IMG/VR virus record: IMGVR_UViG_2778261632_000005
Location: 1-42,705 of that record
Reading direction: 5' to 3' (one strand)
DNA length: 42,705 bases
Source of the DNA: a virus
Lineage: Duplodnaviria; Heunggongvirae; Uroviricota; Caudoviricetes
In this document: positions 1 to 42,705 of the stretch, piece after piece
Layout of the letters: every line of letters starts with the position of its first letter
How positions within the stretch are numbered: the first letter of the stretch is position 1
Made by a program: the position numbers and the translations under genes
Notes under the pieces: model-generated
Seen by the model: only the letters and a program-made list of their open reading frames with translations
Databases searched by the model: none
What the model was told of the DNA's origin: nothing

Positions 1-1134
1 TTAATTATTAATAATTTTTATCCAATCCTTGCCTCTATCATCATGGTATCTGGCTGTTTGCTGGGGAGATTTATGCCCCAGCAGTTTTTGAGTATTTACT
101 CCCTGGTCTTCATACAGACGTTCTGCCAGAGAGCGCTGCTCGTGAAAAGTTGCAGGCGTGCCCTCACCCCATTCAATCTCTGCTTTATCCCGTGCTTTGC
201 TGAAATTCATCGTAATGGTGTTGGACTTCACCTGCGCACCGCGCTCCGCCTGCGACGTTGCCCGAAAGAAGTGGATCATATACGGGCTGACTGCATAATC
301 CCGACATCTGGCAACAACATCCCGAAGACACCAACCTATAGCATTAAGGCGCAGAGAAAGAGGGATTGCGATTTTGCTCCCGGTTTTTTCCTGAATGACA
401 TGGAGATGATCATCCCAAATATCGCTAAATTTCATTCGCGAGATATCACCTAACCGCTGGCCAGTCACCAGTGCTAACAGCATAGCATTCCCCATATACT
501 GATGTTTCTTATCCGCGATATCGAAAATCTTCTGCCACTCGTCGAGGCTAAGTCGTTGTCTGGTAATCTTGCGCCTGGGCTGTTTAGTAGCAAGGGCAGG
601 GTTGTGACCAGACGGCACTTCACCGTAGTGTTGGGCCTCTTTGAATACATCGATCAGAACTGAGCGAACAACTTGTGCCATTCTTGGTTGGCCTGCAGAT
701 AGATACTCTTCAAGAATTTGAGCAATATCCCTGACATCAACAGAAGATATCAGTTTCATTCCCGCACGTTCTTTGAGAAGTGCAACTGGCTTTGCTTTTT
801 GTTTATACGTATTCTCTTTGATATCGCCTGACGCGAATCTTTCCTCCTGAATTTTCCAGTACCGCTCAAGCCAGGTAATAGTCGTAATTGCTTTACCTCT
901 GCTGGTGGCAATCCGATCGCTAATAGCCAGAACCTGTCTTGAGCGCTGCTCGGCAAGTCTTGCGTTCGCTTCAGTAGCAATTGCTATAGCCTCCACTTCA
1001 TCAGTACCCAAGCTGTGAAATTTCCCTGTCACAGGGTGTTTGTACCTCCAATAAACTTTATTGACCTTCCGACTATAGAGTGGATAAAGGTTAGGTACTG
1101 ATACATTATTTTTACGTGGTCTCGCTGCCATCGC
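1..1134 (-). CDS. int: Tyrosine integrase, lambda Int family
   Basis: 377 aa from MAARPRKNN; C-terminal motifs resemble lambda Int (LLALVTGQRLGDI, TFHEQRSLAERLYE, LLGHKSPQQTARYHDDRG); AAGGA RBS 8 nt upstream; the ORF is open to 1197 but 1134 fits the lambda Int N-terminus and the RBS. Confidence 0.9.
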   Translation of the reverse strand, partial: AMAARPRKNNVSVPNLYPLYSRKVNKVYWRYKHPVTGKFHSLGTDEVEAIAIATEANARLAEQRSRQVLAISDRIATSRGKAITTITWLERYWKIQEERFASGDIKENTYKQKAKPVALLKERAGMKLISSVDVRDIAQILEEYLSAGQPRMAQVVRSVLIDVFKEAQHYGEVPSGHNPALATKQPRRKITRQRLSLDEWQKIFDIADKKHQYMGNAMLLALVTGQRLGDISRMKFSDIWDDHLHVIQEKTGSKIAIPLSLRLNAIGWCLRDVVARCRDYAVSPYMIHFFRATSQAERGAQVKSNTITMNFSKARDKAEIEWGEGTPATFHEQRSLAERLYEDQGVNTQKLLGHKSPQQTARYHDDRGKDWIKIINN

Positions 1135-1357
1135 TAAGGATCCTTTGCAATTTTGGTGAGTCAGATTTCTTGATAACCGGCGCAGCAAGTTCTCCAACCA
1201 ATTCCGCGTCCTCTCTAACTCTCCAGAGCCTACCTTGCTTCATTGCTGGTGGAGAAAAGAGATTTTGCTTAGCGTAACGGCGCAATGTTGAGACGCTAGG
1301 TGGATTACTTCTGTATTTATCGGTTGCCCATTCTTCAAGAGTTAACATCTGAATCAT
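1112..1357 (-). CDS. xis: Excisionase-like small DNA-binding protein
   Basis: 81 aa directly upstream of int and overlapping its start by 23 nt as in lambda xis-int; GGAGA RBS. Confidence 0.65.
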   Translation of the reverse strand: MIQMLTLEEWATDKYRSNPPSVSTLRRYAKQNLFSPPAMKQGRLWRVREDAELVGELAAPVIKKSDSPKLQRILSDGSETT

Positions 1358-1416: not shown

Positions 1417-1701
1417 TTAGCTTTGGTGGAACAGCATAGAGCGGCCCGGGTGAGACATCAAAACAGCGCCAGCGTATATCACAGGTTCTTTCTTCACCTT
1501 CTTTGTGCCAGTCAACGACATCTGCCACTGGCTCGGCGTTCCTACCTGCCAACACTCATCTACTACCTTCAACATATCCGCGAGAATGTAAGCTCTGTTC
1601 CCGCCGTTTGAGTACTGGGTATCATGCTGCAGGTGTTCGCGTATCTGGTGCAGTCGATCGAGTGATGCAGGACCGTGCGCCGGGTGGTTGTTAGTTGTCA
1701 T
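1417..1701 (-). CDS. Hypothetical protein (94 aa)
   Basis: ATG overlaps the TGA stop of the upstream methyltransferase gene (ATGA coupling). Confidence 0.5.
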   Translation of the reverse strand: MTTNNHPAHGPASLDRLHQIREHLQHDTQYSNGGNRAYILADMLKVVDECWQVGTPSQWQMSLTGTKKVKKEPVIYAGAVLMSHPGRSMLFHQS

Positions 1702-2477
1702 GCTGCACGCTCCTGATTATTTATTTCTACGCAGCACGCTGAATGCTGCAGCTGCCACTCGCGGAACTTGTCCATTTCCAAGGGCTTTAATTCTGTCCAC
1801 CCGATGGGCCACCCCATTAGCCACTCGACCCATTCCGGGTTCAGTGGGCCAGTTACCGTATCCAGCTGCGGTGCAAATGACGGGATTCTGGATGGCGTAT
1901 TTACCTGCTGCGCTAAGCTGGTTCCCGTCATCTTCTCTGTGTACAGCCTCCCCGGTTCGCGTCGCTCGCTGATGGCGTTGTCCACATCCTGTGCGACGAC
2001 CCAAATTCTGTCTCGCTTGTGAGGCGCTCCAGCGTCGAGTGCTGAAATACGACACCATTGCGCGTCATACCCCATTTCGGCAAGGTCACCAACGACCACT
2101 GCAAGTCCTCTTCTAACAAGCAACGGTGAGTTTTCCACGAGCACGAAGCGCGGTCGAACCTCACTGATAATTCTTGCCATGTGCCGCCATAGTCCAGATT
2201 TCTCGCCATCAATTCCCGCTCCCTTTCCAGCGGCGCTAATGTCCTGGCATGGAAACCCTCCAGAAACGACATCAACAATTCCTCTCCATGGCTTTCCGTC
2301 AAAACTGCGCACGTCAGACCAAATCGGGAAAGGTCTGAGGATTCCATCGTTTTGTCGTTGCGCGAGAACTTGTGCGGCGTAGGCATCACGTTCAACTGCG
2401 CAAACTGTGCGCCATCCAAGGAGGTACCCTCCGAGAATTCCTCCGCCAGCGCCTGCGAAAAGAGCCAACTCATTCAC
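1698..2477 (-). CDS. DNA (cytosine-5)-methyltransferase, short orphan type
   Basis: Motif I FAGAGG, motif IV GGFPCQDIS (PCQ catalytic Cys), motif VI VLVENSP, motif VIII HKRDRIWVV; no adjacent restriction endonuclease gene. Confidence 0.85.
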   Translation of the reverse strand: MNELALFAGAGGGILGGYLLGWRTVCAVERDAYAAQVLAQRQNDGILRPFPIWSDVRSFDGKPWRGIVDVVSGGFPCQDISAAGKGAGIDGEKSGLWRHMARIISEVRPRFVLVENSPLLVRRGLAVVVGDLAEMGYDAQWCRISALDAGAPHKRDRIWVVAQDVDNAISERREPGRLYTEKMTGTSLAQQVNTPSRIPSFAPQLDTVTGPLNPEWVEWLMGWPIGWTELKPLEMDKFREWQLQHSACCVEINNQERAA

Positions 2478-6798: not shown

Positions 6799-7458
6799 TT
6801 AGATGTTCTGCGTTATCTGAACAACTTTGCCTACAATGCGGCAATTGCCATCAATGGGGATCGGCTTAAAGGCGGGATTAAGCGGCATGAGATATGAGTA
6901 AGGGCTATCCCAAACAAGTTTCTTCACAGTCGCTTCTGCTGAACCATCAAGTATTGCAACGACAATTTTCCCATACAGGTCATCAAGTTGTCCGTAATGT
7001 GGCTCAACAATAACGATTGAGCCCTCCGGAATTGATGGAAGTCCATGTGGGTTAGTCATTGACTCACCACGAACTACCAATCCGAAAACTTCATCAGAAA
7101 CGTTTGCTGTGGTTTGAGTCCATGAAATCACATCAGTAAGCCTTGAACATGCATAGGTATCAGTCCATACCCCGGCCTGAACAGCAGAGATAATAGGAAC
7201 GGCGGTAGGTGGCTTCAGGTATGGGATAACTTTGGTGTCATCTTGAGTCTCATCACCCTTGCCGTAAAGAATCCATTCAGGAGTGGTCTGTAAAGCCATC
7301 GCTAGTTGGTGAAGGTTTTCTCCGTCAGGCTTAGTTGTACCGTTCTCCCATTTGGTAACGGACACTCTACTCACCCCAAGGCGTTTAGCCAGGGTCTGCT
7401 GAGTTATATCGAGCTGGACTCGCCGGGATCTTATTCGGTCTTTCATCTCTGTTTTCAT
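6799..7458 (-). CDS. cI: Prophage repressor, cI-like (HTH plus LexA-type S24 autopeptidase)
   Basis: N-terminal HTH (QQTLAKRLGVSRVSVTKWENG), Ala-Gly cleavage site (VQAGVW), Ser nucleophile GESM and Lys (TVKKL). Confidence 0.9.
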   Translation of the reverse strand: MKTEMKDRIRSRRVQLDITQQTLAKRLGVSRVSVTKWENGTTKPDGENLHQLAMALQTTPEWILYGKGDETQDDTKVIPYLKPPTAVPIISAVQAGVWTDTYACSRLTDVISWTQTTANVSDEVFGLVVRGESMTNPHGLPSIPEGSIVIVEPHYGQLDDLYGKIVVAILDGSAEATVKKLVWDSPYSYLMPLNPAFKPIPIDGNCRIVGKVVQITQNI

Positions 7459-8638: not shown

Positions 8639-8691
8639 AGGATCAGAATGAGCCTGTTAATGACATCCCGGCCCATAGTAATAAATCCTGA
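8479..8691 (+). CDS. Hypothetical small protein (70 aa)
   Basis: GGAGAAGG RBS; protein-like composition; overlaps the start of the replication gene. Confidence 0.4.
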   Translation: MRALNRRFKDSYGVPVRVIRWEPETQRVIYLRDGYEHECFSPLEQFQRKFREIEDQNEPVNDIPAHSNKS

Positions 8692-9568
8692 CCTTGCATA
8701 CAGCATTGGCCTGAATGAGGCGATTGCTTTGCAGCAGATTAATTACTGGCTGCAAGAAACCAAATCGGGCATGGAAAGTGATGGTGTTCGCTGGATTTAC
8801 AACACGACAGAACAGTGGCTGGAGCAGTTCCCGTTCTGGTCTGAGTCGACCCTGAAGCGTACCTTCACCCGCCTGAAGACACTCGGTGTGCTCAAAATTG
8901 AGCAACTGAACAAGTCCCAACGCGACATGACCAACTTCTACACAATCAACTATGAAAGCGAGCTTTTAGATGAAGTCAAAGTGACCGAATCGAAGAGGTC
9001 AAAATGTGCTCTTCCATCAGGTCAAAATGACACGATGGAAGAGGTCAAAGTGACACGCTCCATCAGGTCAAAACGAACCGATGTCATCAGGTCAAAATGC
9101 ACTGATGATCTTACAGAGAATACAACAGAGAGTACTACAGAGATTACAGGTAAAGACTCTTGTCCGGTTGCGGTGCAACCAGACCGAGATGTGTTGATTA
9201 CTGATCAGGCTAAACAGGTTTTGGTTCACCTTAACCAGGTCACGAACTCACGCTACCAGGTTTCAACCACGTCTCTGCAAAACATCCGTGCACGTATCGG
9301 CGAAGGGTTCACCGTTGCAGAGTTGTCGCTGGTGGTGGATTACTGCAACGCGAAGTGGGGTGATGACCTGAAGATGTCTGATTACCTGAGACCACAGACG
9401 CTTTTCCAGCCGTCCAAGTTCCCGGGATACCTCAAGTCTGCAAATAACTGGGACAAAGCTGGCCGCCCAGAACGAGTGAATGGCGAGTGGGCCCGCGAAG
9501 ATGGCATCTTCAAACCCAGCTTCAAGAACACTGATTACAGCGCTATTCCACCAGGGTTCAGGGGGTAA
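8648..9568 (+). CDS. Replication initiator, lambda O-like
   Basis: 306 aa in the replication position after cII; contains an internal iteron array; GAGGA RBS. Confidence 0.7.
   Translation: MSLLMTSRPIVINPDLAYSIGLNEAIALQQINYWLQETKSGMESDGVRWIYNTTEQWLEQFPFWSESTLKRTFTRLKTLGVLKIEQLNKSQRDMTNFYTINYESELLDEVKVTESKRSKCALPSGQNDTMEEVKVTRSIRSKRTDVIRSKCTDDLTENTTESTTEITGKDSCPVAVQPDRDVLITDQAKQVLVHLNQVTNSRYQVSTTSLQNIRARIGEGFTVAELSLVVDYCNAKWGDDLKMSDYLRPQTLFQPSKFPGYLKSANNWDKAGRPERVNGEWAREDGIFKPSFKNTDYSAIPPGFRG
8971..9099 (+). repeat. Origin-like iteron array inside the replication initiator gene
   Basis: Six direct repeats with core GTCAAA(A/G)(T/C)G at 8975, 8998, 9021, 9044, 9067 and 9091 (23-bp period, last 24), with alternating GAAGAG/CATCAG flanks. 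Confidence 0.75.
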
Positions 9569-17398: not shown

Positions 17399-17734
17399 AT
17401 GAATTATCAGCTTGCAAAATTGTATCGCGGTGATCGTTTCTTCGGGTATGGAATAGCCGTAGGTGGCTTGCTTATTGATGGTCAGGTTTCAACGGTGGTA
17501 GAAACTGCGCCAAACGAAATGCCGAAAGTAATTGCGACATTTAATCTCAGCAATGAACATTCCGAAAAACAACCACGAATTGATTTAGACAACCCAAGAG
17601 CTTCTAACGAATTCCAGATTGTAATCCATCCAGATAAGACATTAACCGTTGAGCAGTTAGAAGAGTTGCGAGACACGGTTAAAGGATTTCTTACCAAGCA
17701 TAATTTGTCTGATGGTGGTTTATGGAAGTATTAA
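17399..17734 (+). CDS. Hypothetical protein (111 aa), first gene of the glycosyltransferase cassette
   Basis: 3' end overlaps the downstream glycosyltransferase start by 13 nt. Confidence 0.5.
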   Translation: MNYQLAKLYRGDRFFGYGIAVGGLLIDGQVSTVVETAPNEMPKVIATFNLSNEHSEKQPRIDLDNPRASNEFQIVIHPDKTLTVEQLEELRDTVKGFLTKHNLSDGGLWKY

Positions 17735-19179
17735 TAAACGGGGTGCGTTTTACACCAGAAGGCGATAACAAAGTACGTATTGGGATTGCAATCACAACCC
17801 ATAATCGGCATGAAGTGCTTAAGCGTGCCATTGAGCAGCACATGAAGCATCTTCCATCTGGTGCGCTGGTGGTTGTGATAGACGATGGATCAAGTCCTGC
17901 TGCAATAGTTCCTGATGGGGTTAAGTTGGTACGCCATGAGCAATCACGCGGCATTGTCGCCTCTAAGAACGCCAGCCTGACAGCGCTGGTGGACGCAGGG
18001 TGTGAGCATCTTTTCCTGTGGGATGATGATGCGTGGCCAATAGCTGATAACTGGCATCTACCCTACATCGAGTCACCAGAACCCCATTTGGCTTATCAGT
18101 TTCTTGACCTCGCTGGTCCACGAAAGATTAACGATATGACTGTCCTGTACAGGGATGATAAGCATATCGCTTACACCGGGCAGCGCGGCGTTATGCTTTA
18201 TTACCACCGCAGCGCCATTGATAAGGTTGGCGGCTTCGATCCGGTATACGGGCGTGGCATGTACGAGCATCCTGATCTGGCGCTTCGCATTCACAACGCA
18301 GGGTTATCGACCTGGGCGTTTGCGGATGTTGCGGGCTCTGAAAAGCTCATTCATTCGATGGATGAATACGAAGAGGGTGCGCGTTCAATTCCCCGACCTG
18401 AGTGTGAAGCGTTAGCAAAAGCTAATGCTGTTATTTATAGCGACAGACGCGATAACGGTTATACCGCATACGTTCCTTTCAGGAAACAGCGCAACGTGGT
18501 GATTACGGCATTGCTGACCAGCCAGAATGATCCACAACGTCAGGTAAGGATGAAAGCGTCTCCTGAGTTGGTTCAGGGATGGGCCACGTCTATTAGTGGC
18601 GCTGATGCAGTGGTACTGGCCGATGAGCTCGATACAGCACCGAAAGGTGCGGACCTTTTTAAAGTGTCACCTTTGTCAATGAGTCCCTATTTCGCACGAT
18701 GGCTGCATATTTATCAGTATCTGCGTGCTCATCCAGAGTATCTCCTTATCTGGTGTACTGATGGTACCGATGTCGAAATGCTTAGAGAGCCATGGGCAGA
18801 AATGCAGCCGGGTAAAATTTACGTGGGCTCAGAGCATAAGACGTATGCCGACGAATGGATGAAGTCCAATCACCACGGCAAAGCGTATAGCGAGTTCATC
18901 GAGAAGCACATTGATGAACCGCTGCTCAACGCTGGACTACTTGGTGGTAGTCGTGACGATGTAATGGAGTTTGCTCACAGGATCATCAGACAGTATTACC
19001 TGATTGAAAGCCATCATTTCTGGAGGATGGAGACAGCTCTCCCCGCGCTGGTCGATATGGGTGCTTTCGGTATGGCTGCGAAGTCATTTGGCAATAGAGT
19101 CGTTACCGGCCCTAAGGTTCATACCATTTTTAAAACTGATGGTATCGGTAAGGAGTTCGCATGGTTTCGCCACAAGTAA
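17722..19179 (+). CDS. Two-domain glycosyltransferase (N-terminal GT2-like GT-A domain, second DxD-containing domain)
   Basis: 485 aa; N-terminal GT2 pattern (IGIAITTHNRHEVLKRAIEQ, VVIDDGSS, LWDDDAWP); C-terminal half has a further acidic motif (LIWCTDGTDVE). Confidence 0.7.
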   Translation: MEVLINGVRFTPEGDNKVRIGIAITTHNRHEVLKRAIEQHMKHLPSGALVVVIDDGSSPAAIVPDGVKLVRHEQSRGIVASKNASLTALVDAGCEHLFLWDDDAWPIADNWHLPYIESPEPHLAYQFLDLAGPRKINDMTVLYRDDKHIAYTGQRGVMLYYHRSAIDKVGGFDPVYGRGMYEHPDLALRIHNAGLSTWAFADVAGSEKLIHSMDEYEEGARSIPRPECEALAKANAVIYSDRRDNGYTAYVPFRKQRNVVITALLTSQNDPQRQVRMKASPELVQGWATSISGADAVVLADELDTAPKGADLFKVSPLSMSPYFARWLHIYQYLRAHPEYLLIWCTDGTDVEMLREPWAEMQPGKIYVGSEHKTYADEWMKSNHHGKAYSEFIEKHIDEPLLNAGLLGGSRDDVMEFAHRIIRQYYLIESHHFWRMETALPALVDMGAFGMAAKSFGNRVVTGPKVHTIFKTDGIGKEFAWFRHK

Positions 19180-36417: not shown

Positions 36418-38514
36418 ATGACCACTTATAACACCGGCAATCCGCTGGGGTCTGCTGCTGCAAAAGATTTATACGATAACGCTCAGAACTTTGATCATCT
36501 GTCGAATGATCTTGAAAATGAGATGTGGCCTGACCGATTTGGGAAGAGCAGGTTAACTTGGCATGGAATGGAAAAAAGATACCAGGAAAAGCTGGTGTCT
36601 ATGGGGTGGGAACTGATTGATTCATTTCAGGGAGGAACTACGTTAACGAGGGCAGATCAGGCGTTGCGTTGGGAATTACCTGATGGGGATGGAGAGTATT
36701 ACCGCTGGGATGGCTCTCTGCCTAAAACAGTCCCTGCCGGTTCTACACCAGATTCAACAGGTGGTGTTGGCACTGGCGCATGGGTTGGAGTTGGTGATGC
36801 ATCTCTTAGATCTGATCTAACAAAATATGGTGCAACGGTTGACCAGATAGCGCATCGGGTTACAACACTGAAATCTTTTGAAGAGTTTGGTGCGATTGGA
36901 GATGGGGTTACTAATGATACAGCCTCGATGCTGGCAGCGCTGGAATGGCTGAAAGATGTCCCTTTCGGTAAATTGGTTGGCAGACCTGGCGCAAATTATC
37001 TAATCACACAAAGCCTCGTCATGAAATTTGACGGCTCATACACTCAAGATGTAACGTCAACTCGCTATCTGGATTTTACTGGGACAGTGATTGTGGCAGG
37101 CGCCGATAATATCACTTGCATTCGCATGAGCCATGATTTCTGCCATATCATCAATCCTGTAGTAATTAACCCAAATAACTATTCCGACGTTATCGCCTAC
37201 GCTATTGCACCAGAAACCGAATCTCAGACTACCATACGCGTGTCACAGCAATTCTGTGTAATGGAGAATCCACGAGCACGGGGAACTAAGATAGGCCTTA
37301 AGTTTAAACCAGGGCCTACAGTCGGTGGGAGTAATAGCGGTGCGTATTACCACTCAATTATGAATCCTAATTTTGAGAGAGTGGATTGCGGATTCTATTT
37401 CGAGCGCAGCGTAAGCGGAGACAATAACAACACAAGGATTCATATCTTCAATCCAGTTCATATAACCGGTAACTGTGCTTTTTGGATCGAAAGCACTGAC
37501 TCACTACGCGTTTACGGTGGATCATGTGAAAATATCACATTGGGAACCTGGCCGGCTGACGTGCCATGCGCAGTCCGTGTTGTAAAAACAGTAAGCACAG
37601 ATACACAGGTCGCTGGAAACCTACATTTCTACGGATATCTTGGAGAAGTTTGTCACAGAGCCTATCAAATAGATACAAATGTAGGAACCTACGAAAACTA
37701 CTTTGATTGGAAATGGGTATTAATTAATGAAAACCCATATCGCGCACCAGGACAGGATGGGAATTTCGTAGCACGATTTGATGGGGAAATTCTTAGTAGT
37801 AGCTGGGACAACAGTGCTCTTAACGTAGTAGGGTGTAGAAACCCACATACAGGACATCAGGCAATAATCATCCAAAATCCAGATGAGACGCCAGCAGAAC
37901 TTTGGAGTAATACTGGGTGGAAATTTACCGCAACAATTTACGATTGCCCGGCACAAAATTTACAACATAGTAATAGCCATGAACAGATATTAGGGGCATT
38001 GTATGCTGGATTGACGCTTACAACCTATCCTGATAGCAGGAGAATAATGTTAACAAGCAAGGAGGGGGCTGATGGGGTTGAGAGACCACAAAATGATCTG
38101 ATAATTAATGGATTTAACAGGCTATGTGCAGAAAATGATAATGATACCGCTCTTGGTGATTCTGATAGACGGTGGAGTGTTGTTTATGCAGCTACTAGTT
38201 CAATAGTTACATCTGATGAGGAGCATAAAACCTCTTTTCTATCAGATGATAATACTTTAGAAAGAGAGAAGAAGGCAGCTAAGGAAATTAAAAGCTGTAT
38301 ATTTCGGTATAAGTTTAAAAAAAGCATTGATAAAAAAGGAGAGGGGGCCCGTCTTCATTATGGAGTGGGGGCGCAAACTGTTGGCGAAATTATGAGGAAG
38401 TATGACCTGAATCCGGATAATTATGCTTTTTGGTGCAGAAACAAAACAAATGAAGGCGATAGGTATGGTATCAGATACGAAGAGTTAATTATGTTTCTGA
38501 TGGTTAACGCATAA
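36418..38514 (+). CDS. Tailspike / side tail fibre with C-terminal intramolecular chaperone-like domain
   Basis: 698 aa; central region looks like a beta-helix depolymerase domain; C-terminal 110 aa resembles peptidase-S74 autoproteolytic chaperone domains (TSSIVTSDEEHKT ... GARLHYGVGAQTVGEIM ... YGIRYEELIMF). Confidence 0.6.
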   Translation: MTTYNTGNPLGSAAAKDLYDNAQNFDHLSNDLENEMWPDRFGKSRLTWHGMEKRYQEKLVSMGWELIDSFQGGTTLTRADQALRWELPDGDGEYYRWDGSLPKTVPAGSTPDSTGGVGTGAWVGVGDASLRSDLTKYGATVDQIAHRVTTLKSFEEFGAIGDGVTNDTASMLAALEWLKDVPFGKLVGRPGANYLITQSLVMKFDGSYTQDVTSTRYLDFTGTVIVAGADNITCIRMSHDFCHIINPVVINPNNYSDVIAYAIAPETESQTTIRVSQQFCVMENPRARGTKIGLKFKPGPTVGGSNSGAYYHSIMNPNFERVDCGFYFERSVSGDNNNTRIHIFNPVHITGNCAFWIESTDSLRVYGGSCENITLGTWPADVPCAVRVVKTVSTDTQVAGNLHFYGYLGEVCHRAYQIDTNVGTYENYFDWKWVLINENPYRAPGQDGNFVARFDGEILSSSWDNSALNVVGCRNPHTGHQAIIIQNPDETPAELWSNTGWKFTATIYDCPAQNLQHSNSHEQILGALYAGLTLTTYPDSRRIMLTSKEGADGVERPQNDLIINGFNRLCAENDNDTALGDSDRRWSVVYAATSSIVTSDEEHKTSFLSDDNTLEREKKAAKEIKSCIFRYKFKKSIDKKGEGARLHYGVGAQTVGEIMRKYDLNPDNYAFWCRNKTNEGDRYGIRYEELIMFLMVNA

Positions 38515-38558: not shown

Positions 38559-39995
38559 TTAGAATCTAATAACTACAATATTATCAACGAGATATATTGC
38601 AAATACATTACCTGCATATAAGGTGGTTTTGTCATTTGCTTTTAGTAAAATTTCATCACGTTTATCATTATTTGCATAGGTAATATCATTTAGCCCGTTC
38701 CTCATTAAAATAAATCTTCCACCATCATAACCCCAAGAAAATGTGTCAAGCATCATGTTATTCATGAATGGATAAATGTTAATGGTTGACTCCATGACTC
38801 CAGAATGTTGTGGGCGCCCATCAATAATAAATTCTTTATGCTTTGATAAATTCAACCTGTCAAGATTACTCACTATCCTGGTTGCTAAAGATTCTGCATA
38901 TCTAAAATCTTCTCGCACTGCATTTGTAGATGCACATAAAAAAAGATAATTAGTAAAGTAAAAAAATACCGCTGGCGCAAGCCATAGCCATTTACGTTTA
39001 AAAGAACAGCACAACGCATAAAGACAGAAGAAGGATGCAGCAGAAATCCCTATAATTGTTCGTGGTATGATTGATGGATTTTGCCCATACACTCCAACTC
39101 CTGGTATAAACGTGACAAGTGCACATAAAACAATAACTATCGTCAGAAAGGTAAATAATGGTTTTGTTGATCTAAAGCACATAACGCATACAGCAACAAC
39201 AAACGCAGCGCACATGATTGCAATCGGGTATAAAAATGGTGAGTCTAGTAGTTTTAAAATGAGTATGTATGAGTTTTTGTAATTATTAAGAACTGTTTCA
39301 AGTCCCGAATAAGTCAATGGAACGATTTTATTGAAATTCAAAAAGTAATAACTTACATTAGTTATTGGGATAATAACTTTAAGGTATGCTATAGTGCCTA
39401 AAAGAAATGTTAAAGCTCTAATTATCAATACTTTGGTTATGTTTTTATAATTTTCTTTTTTTACATAAGCTCCCATGAATATCTCAATAGCGGATAGACA
39501 TATAAATAGTGCTATTGCAGCTTGGTAAAGAGAAAGGCTGGCAACAAGAGCCGTTACTGACAAAACAAAAGAAGATATTTTGTTAGTGTGTAAAATATAA
39601 GGCGTAATTGCCATGGTTACAGATAGAACCATAAAGAAGGAATCATATCTGAATAATAAATTAGAAACAAAAAAAGGAGATGCTAAGAAGCATAAAGATA
39701 GCACTATTGCTTTAATCCCTTTGCTCCCTATAAAGTATTCACATACTTTTAAAGATACTGCACTATAAAGGATTAATGCCAGAATTGTCATTCCTGGGAA
39801 GTAGTCAGGAAGAACATCTCCTGTAGTAATTGTTCTATATATAGCTTCTGCAAGAGGTCGTCCATCTCCTTGCCATCCATAATATGACCATACCGACCTA
39901 AATATGTCGTCATTATAATAACTAGTTCCTAACAGTAATGGAATGGCATAAAATAATGTCAGTCCAGCAGCAATAACTATATGTCTATTAGGCAT
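38559..39995 (-). CDS. Serotype-specific O-antigen glucosyltransferase, GtrC-like polytopic membrane protein
   Basis: 478 aa, about 10 predicted TM helices, strongly AT-rich coding sequence, immediately downstream of gtrA-gtrB. Confidence 0.75.
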   Translation of the reverse strand: MPNRHIVIAAGLTLFYAIPLLLGTSYYNDDIFRSVWSYYGWQGDGRPLAEAIYRTITTGDVLPDYFPGMTILALILYSAVSLKVCEYFIGSKGIKAIVLSLCFLASPFFVSNLLFRYDSFFMVLSVTMAITPYILHTNKISSFVLSVTALVASLSLYQAAIALFICLSAIEIFMGAYVKKENYKNITKVLIIRALTFLLGTIAYLKVIIPITNVSYYFLNFNKIVPLTYSGLETVLNNYKNSYILILKLLDSPFLYPIAIMCAAFVVAVCVMCFRSTKPLFTFLTIVIVLCALVTFIPGVGVYGQNPSIIPRTIIGISAASFFCLYALCCSFKRKWLWLAPAVFFYFTNYLFLCASTNAVREDFRYAESLATRIVSNLDRLNLSKHKEFIIDGRPQHSGVMESTINIYPFMNNMMLDTFSWGYDGGRFILMRNGLNDITYANNDKRDEILLKANDKTTLYAGNVFAIYLVDNIVVIRF

Positions 39996-39999
39996 GATA

Positions 40000-40920
40000 T
40001 TACCTCTTATTCTTCTTTATAAGATATTTTGGCCTTTTTTTGGTTTCTAAATATATTCTACCAATATACTCACCAAGTACTCCAATTCCTATTAATTGAA
40101 TTCCACCAAGAAACAGAATAGACACTAGCAGGGATGGATAGCCCCGTACGGCGTTACCAAACGCTAAAGTGTTGAATATCATCCAGGCGCCATACAAAAA
40201 AGCGCAACCGGCTACCACTAGCCCAATATACGTCCAGATGCGAAGCGGGAAGGTCGAGAAAGAAGTTATGCCTTCTAGTGCTAAATTCCATAGTTTCCAG
40301 CCATTAAATTTTGAGTCTCCGGCAACACGTTCAGCTCTTGCATACTCAACAACATCAATTTTCCCACCAACCCATGACAAAACACCTTTCATGAAGAGAT
40401 TGCGCTCAGGAAGCAGTTTGATGTTTTCAACAACTTCGCGTGACATCAGGCGAAAATCACCCACGTTCTCTTCAATTTTTGGGTTGCTAATTTTGTTGTG
40501 TAGCTTGTAGAACCACTCAGCAGATTTGCGCTTTAGCCTTCCATCGGTAGAGCGGTCTGTTCTTTTAGCCAGAACCATATCAGCGCCATCCTGCCACTTA
40601 GCAATGAGGTGCGGGATGACATCGATAGGGTCTTGCAGATCAACATCGATTGGGATGACTGCTTCGCCGGTAGCATTATCGAGACCTGCGAATAGGGCAG
40701 GCTCTTTACCAAAGTTTCTGGTGAAAGATAGAGGTACCACCAATTTGTCAGAGACAGCAAGTGCATTGATGATGGATTCTGTTGAATCGCTGCTCCCGTC
40801 GTTAATAAATACAATCTCAATGTCGTACTCTTTTAGGCCTTCAAACTCGCGTACCGTTTTATAAAATATAGGTATTGTGGCCTCTTCGTTAAAGACCGGA
40901 ACAACTAAAGAAATTTTCAT
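40000..40920 (-). CDS. gtrB: Bactoprenol glucosyltransferase GtrB (GT2)
   Basis: 306 aa; GT2 motifs ([24 protein letters not shown]) and two C-terminal TM helices. Confidence 0.85.
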
Positions 40921-41279
40921 TTCGCATCCCTAAAGACAATGAATTTCGAGTAAATAAATCCGCATACCAAGCTGATCGCGGAAAAAGCAACCAGGGTGAC
41001 AATAGGTGGGAGTGCGCACAAATCAGCCCCCCAGCCAACAGCAGCGCTTAATGATCCCATAAAACCGACATATAACATGTAGCGCAGCATTGTTGTCGAT
41101 GAATTGAATGTGAATTTGGCATTGGCATAAAAACTGAACGATACAGCTACGGCAAATCCAGCCAGGTTCGCTAGAGCCTGATTTGTGTGCAATACGTAGA
41201 TGCAGATTGCAAACACAACCCAGTGGATAAGCGTATTGATGATGCCGATAGATGTGTACTTAGCGAATAGCTTTAACAT
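40917..41279 (-). CDS. gtrA: GtrA flippase-like small membrane protein
   Basis: 120 aa from MLKLFAKYT, 4 predicted TM helices; stop overlaps the gtrB start; ORF open to 41342. Confidence 0.8.
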
Positions 41280-41495
41280 TATAAAAATCAGTGAATTCTT
41301 AGAGGCCGAAAGTTTAGCATTTGAAAGTGGATCGATCGACATATCATGTTAATTTGGTGAGACAAAAACGGGATACACAAAGCTTTGCATCGGTTTGCAA
41401 GGCTTTGCAGTGCCCACCTATGACACATTCTCATGAAGAGCTCAGCAGTAATTATTGATAGGCAGCGCCGCATTGATCTGCAATCATTTTAAAAC

Positions 41496-41515
41496 TACTG
41501 TATATAAAAACAGTA
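41496..41515 (+). promoter_or_regulatory. LexA operator (SOS box)
   Basis: TACTGTATATAAAAACAGTA matches CTGT-N8-ACAG; lies 18 nt upstream of the next ORF. Confidence 0.8.
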
Positions 41516-41532
41516 AAAGATTGGTGAAAATC

Positions 41533-41772
41533 ATGCCACGCCGTTCAGATATTAACGCTGCATTTTCGTCAGCAGTACAACAAAACCAGAAAGGATATCA
41601 GTGCTTACGCACAGACGACTTCATCCGAGAGTTAGCGAAAGTGCACTGGCATTTCAGCCGTGTCGATGCTAACTCCTGGATAGAGCGATACCAGCCAGAT
41701 TTTGCCGACAAGACCACGGACAACAGTGATAACCGTTACTGGATCCTGCGCAATATGGGAAGGGTATTCTAA
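41533..41772 (+). CDS. Small SOS-box-preceded protein upstream of a UmuD-like gene (ImpC-like by position)
   Basis: 79 aa; stop overlaps the downstream ATG; the ImpC label is an inference from operon architecture, not from sequence. Confidence 0.45.
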   Translation: MPRRSDINAAFSSAVQQNQKGYQCLRTDDFIRELAKVHWHFSRVDANSWIERYQPDFADKTTDNSDNRYWILRNMGRVF

Positions 41773-42160
41773 TGGGATTTACTTCACCTGCAGCAGATTA
41801 CGTTGAAACAAGGATTTCCCTTGATCAGCAGTTTATCAGTCAGCCCGCAGCGACTTACTTTATGCGAGCATCACGTTCACATTTCAGGTAAGGGATAATC
41901 CTGGGGGCGCTGCTTGTTGTGATGCGTCACTTTCTCCATGTGATGGCTCGTTGCTGATATGCGCGATAGACGGAGAATTCAGGATCAAGCGATATCGGAC
42001 TCATCCTCAGCCCCACCTGGTTAATCTGGAGAACGGGAGAAGGGAGGCGCTGCCAGCAGATGATGACGGTTACAGTTCTGCACCCGCTATATTCGGAGTG
42101 ATCACGTACATCATTAATGATGCCAGGAACGCGGAGTTTGATGACTGCCCGGTAATGTGA
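41772..42160 (+). pseudogene. UmuD/ImpA-like S24 peptidase gene, apparently disrupted
   Basis: N-terminus MGFTSPAADYVETRISLDQQF...ATYFMRAS ends at TAA (41889-41891); the C-terminal part (AIDGEFRIKRY...FGVITYIIND) continues in another frame; no umuC-like gene follows. Confidence 0.6.
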
Positions 42161-42528
42161 ATAGCTTAAATTGTGCGAGGATTTTAACCTCATTCACCTG
42201 ACTCGTTATGGCTATGTTGAGACCAAAAAATATTTCACCATTGTACCTCCTAGATGATTATAAGTTATTGATTAAGTTGATCTTAAAATCATGAATTATT
42301 GGCGAAAAAACGGTGTAACTTGTTGATAGTGCTTGATAACACGCATGATTTAAAATCCCTTTATCGTGAAAGGGCTGATAGGTACAGGCACTTGTTTTTG
42401 CCCTCTAAAACGGTTATCAAAACCAAAAAACACACATTGATAATCAATCGGTTAGGGGAATGCTGAAAGCCAGTTGATTTACAATAAAATTATAGAATTA
42501 TTTTTATTTATCATGTGGTTGTATATGA

Positions 42529-42705
42529 AGCATCTAACTACTGTTACGCCATATGGGTTGGACTGAAGCGGCTGACCTGATTGTTAAAGGTATGGAAGGC
42601 GCAATCAATGCGAAGACCGTAACCTATGACTTCGAACGTCTGATGGAAGGCGCTAAACTGCTGAAATGTTCAGAGTTTGGTGACGCGATCATCAAGAATA
42701 TGTAA
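42529..42705 (+). pseudogene. icd: 3' fragment of the isocitrate dehydrogenase gene (icd), prophage junction remnant
   Basis: Encodes [55 protein letters not shown], recalled as near-identical to the E. coli Icd C-terminus; an in-frame TAA lies immediately upstream, so only the 3' end is present. Confidence 0.8.

Follow-up and report, generated by a model that had tools for sequence, protein, structure and literature searches.

A probable attR of an e14-type lambdoid prophage in the 3' part of Escherichia coli icd

The attP site of phage 21 combines dodecamer arm sites with 209 bp of homology to icd. The gene icd is well known as a prophage site, for which attP carries replacement sequence (PMC10111431), and the element e14 is flanked by icd on one side and by icdC on the other (PMC13626634; PMC6379469). 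In Campbell's account, phages 21 and e14 use one site with differing specificities of integration and excision (PMC3530522), and the classic e14/phage 21 arrangement is credited to Hill, Brody and Campbell (PMC13626634; PMC12803456; PMC3530522).

In the present work, we have analysed the right end of a 42,705-nt stretch of viral DNA (hereafter the window) together with the genes at its left end that bear on integration. Our analyses indicate that positions 42161-42705 very probably represent the attR (P-O-B') of a ~43.7-kb lambdoid prophage that is integrated in the 3' part of E. coli icd and carries an e14-type int/xis/att module. A junction of this kind is already known and annotated in RefSeq; the element adds another member to the e14-type group, and its junction shows no departure from the known mechanism. 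Between the two ends the window holds a complete lambdoid genome with head, tail, lysis, replication and immunity modules, which include, besides the genes listed in Table 1, a replication gene with iterons, terminase, capsid, portal, tape measure, TipJ and tailspike genes and a gtrABC cassette.

Table 1. Coordinates of the features discussed in the text (positions are those of the window)
Feature	Position	Strand	Basis
Tyrosine integrase, e14-type, 376 aa	1-1131	-	PF09003 (Arm-DNA-bind_1) and PF00589 (Phage_integrase)
Excisionase, 81 aa, overlapping the start of int	1112-1357	-	Pfam Exc PF07825, E = 2.9e-12
CI-like S24 repressor	6799-7458		
Predicted P arm of attR, non-coding AT-rich right end of the prophage	42161-42541	+	GC 0.331; blocks conserved with e14
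IHF-consensus match	42261-42273	-	Fits WATCAANNNNTTR
IHF-consensus match	42316-42328	-	Fits WATCAANNNNTTR
Putative arm-type integrase binding site GGTTATCAAAAC (e14-type dodecamer)	42412-42423	+	Motif, position and conservation
IHF-consensus match AATCAATCGGTTA	42442-42454	+	Fits WATCAANNNNTTR; e14 has AATCAATGAGTTA at the aligned position
In-frame TAA	42535-42537	+	Closes the icd frame from the left; inside conserved CATCTAACTA
att identity block TGTTACGCCATATGGG (16 bp)	42542-42557	+	Common to attL and attR in related lysogens
Probable resident (B') DNA, displaced icd 3' end, icdC-type pseudogene fragment	42558-42705	+	Divergence step, alleles and match to native icd

The transition from phage to icd and the limit of the mobile DNA

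The right end of the window (42542-42705) matches, without gaps, the 3'-most 164 nt of icd from K-12 and from other E. coli strains. The match comprises 53 whole codons and the stop codon, with positions 42544-42705 being translated in the icd frame. This segment is matched in every one of the complete E. coli genomes covered (5,426/5,426), so that chance resemblance is not an issue. An earlier note on this DNA, made from the sequence alone, had assigned the last 177 nt to the C-terminus of isocitrate dehydrogenase; the C-terminus is real, but its coding segment is 164 nt long, and a segment of 177 nt (42529-42705) would take in the stop codon that lies ahead of it. The AT-rich DNA and the in-frame stop that the same note had described in front of the icd part are both present. 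The GC content of the 381 nt of the predicted P arm is well below the values of 0.457 in the icd part and 0.475 in the whole window. No similarity to icd is detected by alignment to the left of 42542, and the transition from phage DNA to icd homology falls exactly at 42541|42542, which is at the right edge of the bracket previously proposed for it (around 42515-42545).

The start of the icd homology agrees within 1 nt with that of K-12 icdC, which is 165 nt in length. In a 99.9% identical prophage, the equivalent of 42538-42705 (168 nt) is described by RefSeq as an incomplete isocitrate/isopropylmalate dehydrogenase pseudogene. An ATG-initiated frame of 50 codons is retained within the fragment (42553-42705; MGWTEAADL...IIKNM) and is repeatedly called as a gene by gene callers. 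Extra icd 3' fragments are common in the species, amounting to roughly 1,900 across the 5,426 complete E. coli genomes.

Compared with the Icd of K-12, the icd-like segment shows exactly two residue changes, viz. MDGAK to MEGAK and IIENM to IIKNM, which are the two substitutions (D to E and E to K) that had been named earlier. The MDGAK…IIENM C-terminus of K-12 itself lies inside the annotated e14 interval (1196209-1211412). The "substitutions" are therefore not mutations; the reference C-terminus of K-12 is an e14-borne, phage-derived copy, which explains why the fragment in the window differs from it at two residues.

The same prophage is present in E. coli PCP07014 and 23CRST032 (identity of 99.9% in the right-hand 25 kb and of 100% in int-xis), where it sits between icd and iraM. 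We also read the right junction in 12 related lysogens that were found through exact look-ups of GtrA and GtrB, and in all 12 an icd 3' fragment adjoins the same P arm. This recurrence, together with the coincidence with icdC, bears out the earlier placing of a right prophage junction in icd.

The limit of the prophage can be located by comparing how the two sides of the identity block vary. Relative to 23CRST032, the window shows 9 mismatches in the 24,852 nt of 17706-42557 (0.036%) vs. 12 mismatches in the 148 nt of 42558-42705 (8.1%; Fisher p = 3e-22), the step in divergence being at 42557|42558. The 262 nt of 42296-42557 are identical to the window (262/262) in 11 of the 12 related lysogens, and the window and the 12 lysogens taken together have two P-arm sequences over this interval vs. 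six alleles of the 148 nt that follow (B'). The exact B' allele of the window is found in none of the 12, and IMG/VR, scanned for exact matches to a 63-nt probe spanning the junction, gave 0 hits. From the divergence step and these allele counts, it follows that the prophage ends at or before 42557. Hence, the right boundary of the prophage is 42557|42558 and not 42705, and positions 42558-42705 lie outside the prophage, as part of the DNA beside which the phage inserted. The presence of the same phage (~0.04% diverged) beside six B' alleles points to several independent recent integrations, and hence to a phage that is active.

Int, Xis and the predicted arms of the attachment site

The integrase at the left end of the window is of the lambda family, as had been noticed before. 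It is 85% identical (318/373) to e14 IntE (b1140) and 87% identical to the Int of vB_EcoM-689R6, an excerpt of a prophage that takes in host icd as well. Its identity to the Int proteins of phage 21 and 21-like phages, including a 380-aa Int encoded by tandem elements that are described below, is 56.6-57.4%. The gene overlapping the start of int is labelled "excisionase" by RefSeq in PCP07014. The arm motif TTCCCCAAAA, which phage 21 and the tandem elements of two lysogens (L014 and L019) contain, is absent on both strands of the whole window. The earlier assignment to an "e14/phage-21" type is therefore upheld in its e14 part, by the 85% identity to IntE and by the e14 arm motif, but not in its phage-21 part, given an Int identity of 57% and the absence of the 21 motif.

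The predicted P arm is, from 42296 on, common to other prophages in icd, and 42296-42705 is ~92% identical in unrelated ones (e.g. AH01). The putative arm-type site GGTTATCAAAAC lies 130 nt upstream of the start of the icd homology, contains the sole exact GTTATCAAAA in the 42.7-kb window and is invariant in an alignment of seven e14-type attR sequences. One-mismatch copies of the motif elsewhere in the window show no enrichment (7 found vs. 4.2 expected). The other blocks that are invariant in the seven attR regions are AAAAACA (42426-42432), ATAATCA (42440-42446) and the identity block with the adjacent TCTAA. Three of the four perfect matches to WATCAANNNNTTR in the whole window fall within 42261-42454, where ~2.3 are expected window-wide and where the local AT-richness raises the background. 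These features suggest that the arm-type site and the consensus matches may serve for the binding of Int and IHF, respectively, and 42161-42541 has the look of a P arm in the style of lambda, with e14 specificity. Searches of 41000-42705 against Rfam gave no match, the promoter and terminator scans of 41300-42705 gave counts no higher than in shuffled sequence, and nothing was found by Pfam in the small open reading frames at 41455-41772, 41951-42160 and 41927-42193 (minus strand).

The window begins on the stop codon of int and ends on the stop codon of the icd fragment, and seems to have been cut at gene boundaries on either side; attL and iraM would flank it on the outside. In the relatives, attL lies ~1.1 kb to the left of the position at which the window starts. 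We examined the left side in eight lysogens, viz. PCP07014 and seven loci retrieved by exact Int sequence. All eight have the same order of a full-length icd (416 aa), 123 nt, putAbiC (278 aa) and int, with 956 nt from the icd stop to the equivalent of window position 1, and all eight, whose Int is identical, share a distinctive icd end, TTGGGTAGAAGCAGC…, which encodes GWVEAADL…MDGAK…IIENM. This end is identical to the fragment in the window at 135 of 148 positions, and represents the phage's own surrogate copy. In PCP07014, three e14-type arm motifs (CGGTTATCAAAAT, ATTATCAAAAC and GTTTAACAAAAC) follow the terminator of the surrogate. By analogy with these relatives, the lysogen from which the window derives probably has the same attL, so that the window would be without ~1.1 kb of the left end of the prophage, attL included. 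A second att copy near int, the absence of which would according to the earlier note count against the insertion, does not occur in the window; this is uninformative with respect to integration, because the window starts on the int stop codon and the ~1.1 kb of prophage that includes attL would lie to the left of it.

In PCP07014, attL and attR are identical over TGTTACGCCATATGGG only and then diverge. This block occurs once in the window; two matches to it with 3 mismatches, on the minus strand in the middle of the prophage and not near int, look like chance. Strand exchange would be bounded by the identity block to 42542-42557. In re-analysed evolution experiments, excision of e14 turns codon 366 of icd from CAC into CAT, which is the icdC version (PMC13626634), and the e14 crossover thus falls to the left of this base, in the 11 bp with which the homology begins (ATGCTGCGCCA). 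By transfer from e14, the overlap of the present phage is probably in 42542-42551, within which an exact overlap of 7 bp may be supposed. A CTG/TTA polymorphism in the attL of two lysogens (L008 and L013) was considered as a marker that would place the crossover to the right of 42546, and was rejected, CTG being present in the attR of the same genome (L014) as well; the phage variant simply carries CTG.

Origin of the icd fragment and proposed mode of integration

Positions 42558-42705 are identical (148/148) to the end of an intact icd located directly before iraM in NZ_OZ197100.1, a genome with a single copy of the gene and an unoccupied site, and the fragment is 99.4% identical to hundreds of single-copy icd genes, e.g. 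that of O157:H7. By these matches the fragment is a common native allele of icd, and it is most likely the original icd tail of the host.

Another, rather unlikely, reading accepts the attR of this prophage but takes the icd fragment as the surrogate 3' end of a second, phage-21-type prophage lying in tandem on the right, with the host tail 40-50 kb further on. Such a layout is known from two loci pairs (L014/L028 and L019/L034) and from the e14-like strain 82.0311 (L025), where an icd-type terminator, three copies of TTCCCCAAAA and a 380-aa 21-type int with xis come after the fragment. After the terminator of the icd fragment, the flank on the iraM side reads …GTTGTTTTATTTATGT… and the tandem 21-type flank reads …TTTTATGATGATGTAAAATCTTCCCCAAAA…. 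Two of the 12 related lysogens, as well as one that is e14-like, thus have the surrogate of a second phage as the fragment, icd fragments reach up to 4 copies in some E. coli genomes, and the 21-type surrogate copies are identical to the window fragment at 143-145 of 148 positions and encode the same peptide. However, the only 148/148 match found is to a native, unoccupied icd followed by iraM, and host flank lies to the right of the fragment in 10 of the 12 related lysogens. On account of these two observations, an origin from the host is much the better bet than one from a tandem phage; it is favoured rather than proven by sequence alone, because the 21-type surrogates come so close.

It is most improbable that the fragment is the phage's own surrogate and that the window represents a circularly permuted or excised genome ending in attP. 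Phages that integrate in icd do carry such a copy, and free phage 21 has an "ICDH-like" pseudogene beside attP, but in a phage genome, phage 21 being an example, the surrogate lies opposite the P arm, on the side of int, whereas int is here 42 kb away at the opposite end. The surrogate of this phage is, moreover, a different sequence (135/148, encoding GWVEAADL) in all eight lysogens examined on the left side, and the jump in divergence from 0.036% to 8.1% at 42558 is unexpected if the fragment had travelled with the phage. Finally, next to no probability remains for the view that the fragment resembles icd by chance, is an artefact of the assembly or ends an intact icd, since the sole point in its favour is the truncation of the window at both ends and it is opposed by the 164-nt match at up to 100% identity, by the in-frame stop and unrelated AT-rich DNA upstream of it, and by the recurrence of the arrangement in independent complete genomes, where it is annotated as a pseudogene.

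Taking the fragment as the displaced tail of the host gene, we propose the following course of events. In the free phage, attP would consist, in order, of the P arm (42161-42541), TGTTACGCCATATGGG, a surrogate of the last ~148 nt of icd together with a terminator, followed by three arm-type sites, putAbiC and int; no free-phage genome with an e14-type Int that shows a contiguous attP was found. Int, with IHF on the arms, would recombine attP with icd inside the identity block. At attL, the 5' part of host icd would be joined to the surrogate 3' end and terminator of the phage, yielding a full-length functional icd just outside the left end of the window, and at attR the P arm would be joined to the resident icd 3' end, leaving a promoterless dead fragment closed by the stop codon. 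The attL of this lysogen would accordingly comprise the 5' part of icd, TGTTACGCCATATGGG, TTGGGTAGAAGC… (encoding GWVEAADL…IIENM), the terminator, three copies of (G/T)TTATCAAAA, putAbiC and position 1 of the window. The earlier suggestion that integration duplicates the 3' end of icd is thus wrong as to mechanism; the phage brings its own surrogate copy, located at attL, and the copy in the window is displaced resident DNA. Excision by Int and Xis would rejoin the fragment to icd and restore the native allele, and the prophage would appear to be still excisable.

With two integrase specificities (e14-type and 21-type) acting at one central metabolic gene, the last 53 codons of this gene are shuffled among strains, sometimes with tandem stacking of prophages. 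We give very little credence to a further idea, viz. that the displaced fragment might retain some activity. Transcription from the P arm, if it took place, could give rise to a micro-peptide from the C-terminus of Icd, by which the dimeric enzyme of lysogens is regulated or disturbed; in a milder variant, attR would serve as a landing pad for 21-type phages, whose tandem arrays would serially swap the C-terminus of Icd.

Comparison with known systems

The closest described system is the cryptic prophage e14 of K-12, with its attR, icdC (b4519), IntE and XisE. Its insertion point is the same within 1 nt, and its Int is 85% identical. Its gene order is also that found here, viz. icd, cargo, int (minus strand), xis (minus strand), phage body, P arm, the icd fragment and iraM. 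In e14, (G/T)TTATCAAAA occurs three times after the terminator of the surrogate icd, and GGTTATCAAAAC lies ~130 nt upstream of icdC, at the same distance as in the window. An IHF-like site, and CATCTAACTA beside the core, are conserved between the two. The P arms are only partly alike, with 38 of 67 positions identical in the last 67 nt, and the identity block begins TGTTACGCC... in this phage vs. ATGCTGCGCC... in e14. The cargo consists of putAbiC and gtrABC here vs. lit, mcrA and pin in e14, and e14 is a 15-kb defective remnant, whereas the element of the window measures ~43.7 kb and has complete modules.

In the free genome of phage 21 (OL657228.1), the P arm is followed by an "ICDH-like" pseudogene of 165 nt, a terminator, the three arm subsites YYTTCCCCAAAA and int. 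One further copy, CTTTCCCCAAAA, lies ~130 nt upstream of the icd homology, at a position equivalent to that of GGTTATCAAAAC in the window. The arm consensus differs, being YYTTCCCCAAAA in phage 21 vs. the e14-type motif in the window. Phage 21 and 21-like lambdoid phages and prophages at icd (e.g. NC-SV and 50icd) have in common with the present element the bacterial site and the strategy of carrying in attP a surrogate 3' end with its terminator, along with one arm-type dodecamer ~130 nt ahead of the homology and three behind the terminator (PMC12803456; PMC10111431).

The predicted organization likewise resembles the attR of lambda (P-O-B') and its Int/IHF/Xis intasome, in having an integrase with an arm-binding domain (PF09003), an AT-rich P arm with predicted arm and IHF sites, and int and xis at the other end. 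Lambda itself uses a non-coding site between gal and bio, with a 15-bp core and no host gene segment. Unlike that of lambda, the target here is inside a gene of an essential pathway, and ~148 nt of coding sequence form part of the att region. The principle is the same as in elements that target the 3' ends of tRNA or protein genes, where an identity block extending into the target gene preserves its function (PMC10111431). In contrast to tRNA-gene targets, however, the target of the present element is protein-coding, and the replacement alters 2-3 amino acids of the enzyme.

Limits of the window and of the prophage

Both ends of the window fall exactly on gene boundaries: at the left, the stop codon of int (position 1), and at the right, that of icd', the displaced 3' fragment of icd at attR (position 42705). 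About 1.1 kb of the true prophage, comprising the surrogate (phage-borne) icd end, a terminator, three arm sites and putAbiC, is missing from the left side, and the right end holds 148 nt of non-phage DNA. In the attL sides of relatives (L003, 2881-3044, and L007-L013), the surrogate Icd C-terminus differs from that of the native allele by T to V (GWVEAADL), E to D and K to E; therefore, the Icd of lysogens has three altered residues. In relatives' attL, the abortive-infection-like gene putAbiC lies between the surrogate icd end and int.

Tandem arrays at icd

Tandem prophages are present to the right of icd' in the related lysogens L014/L028 and L019/L034 and in the e14-like lysogen L025. In these loci, icd' at the e14-type prophage's attR is immediately followed by int-xis of the 21 type, together with three YYTTCCCCAAAA arm sites; thus, phages with the other integrase specificity still target attR. 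The copies of the icd 3' end number up to 4 per genome.

Gene content of the prophage

Features located in the window
Feature	Position	Strand	Characteristics
C-5 cytosine DNA methyltransferase	1698-2477	-	259 aa; PF00145
Replication-initiator-like gene	8648-9568		306 aa; Phg_2220_C domain
Direct-repeat array	8955-9107		within the replication-initiator-like gene; 23-nt spacing
ORF	17722-19179	+	485 aa; in E. coli 23CRST032, whose prophage is identical, annotated as family-2 glycosyltransferase
Tailspike	36418-38514	+	Tail_spike_N domain and C-terminal Peptidase_S74 chaperone domain; adjoins gtr cassette
O-antigen glucosylation (serotype-conversion) gtr cassette	38559-41279	-	GtrA (120 aa), GtrB (306 aa, GT2), type-specific GtrII-family glucosyltransferase (478 aa)
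Hypothetical gene	41533-41772		79 aa; immediately upstream of the pseudogene
HumD/UmuD-like translesion-polymerase accessory pseudogene	41772-42160	+	stops in every frame

In the prophage of E. coli PCP07014, which is otherwise identical, the methyltransferase gene has a stop codon within it; in the window the gene is intact. Relatives with an identical Int first depart from the window in this part of the sequence, starting at about 1630 to 1940. The repeat array (…CATCAGGTCAAAATGA…) looks like an iteron-type origin comparable to that in lambda O. The 485-aa ORF immediately precedes the HNH and terminase genes, an unusual location for a gene annotated as a glycosyltransferase. RefSeq flags the HumD/UmuD-like gene as frameshifted in the 99.9% identical prophages.

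The gtr cassette and the tailspike

The tailspike gene is interrupted in PCP07014 by an IS66-family element, which the window does not carry. The adjoining gtr cassette is very low in GC (0.34-0.36), and the same cassette is also present at another locus, within a prophage on the tyrP-yecA side (L018/L030). In Shigella and P22-type phages the gtr cassette adjoins int, whereas in the window's prophage it lies just inside attR.
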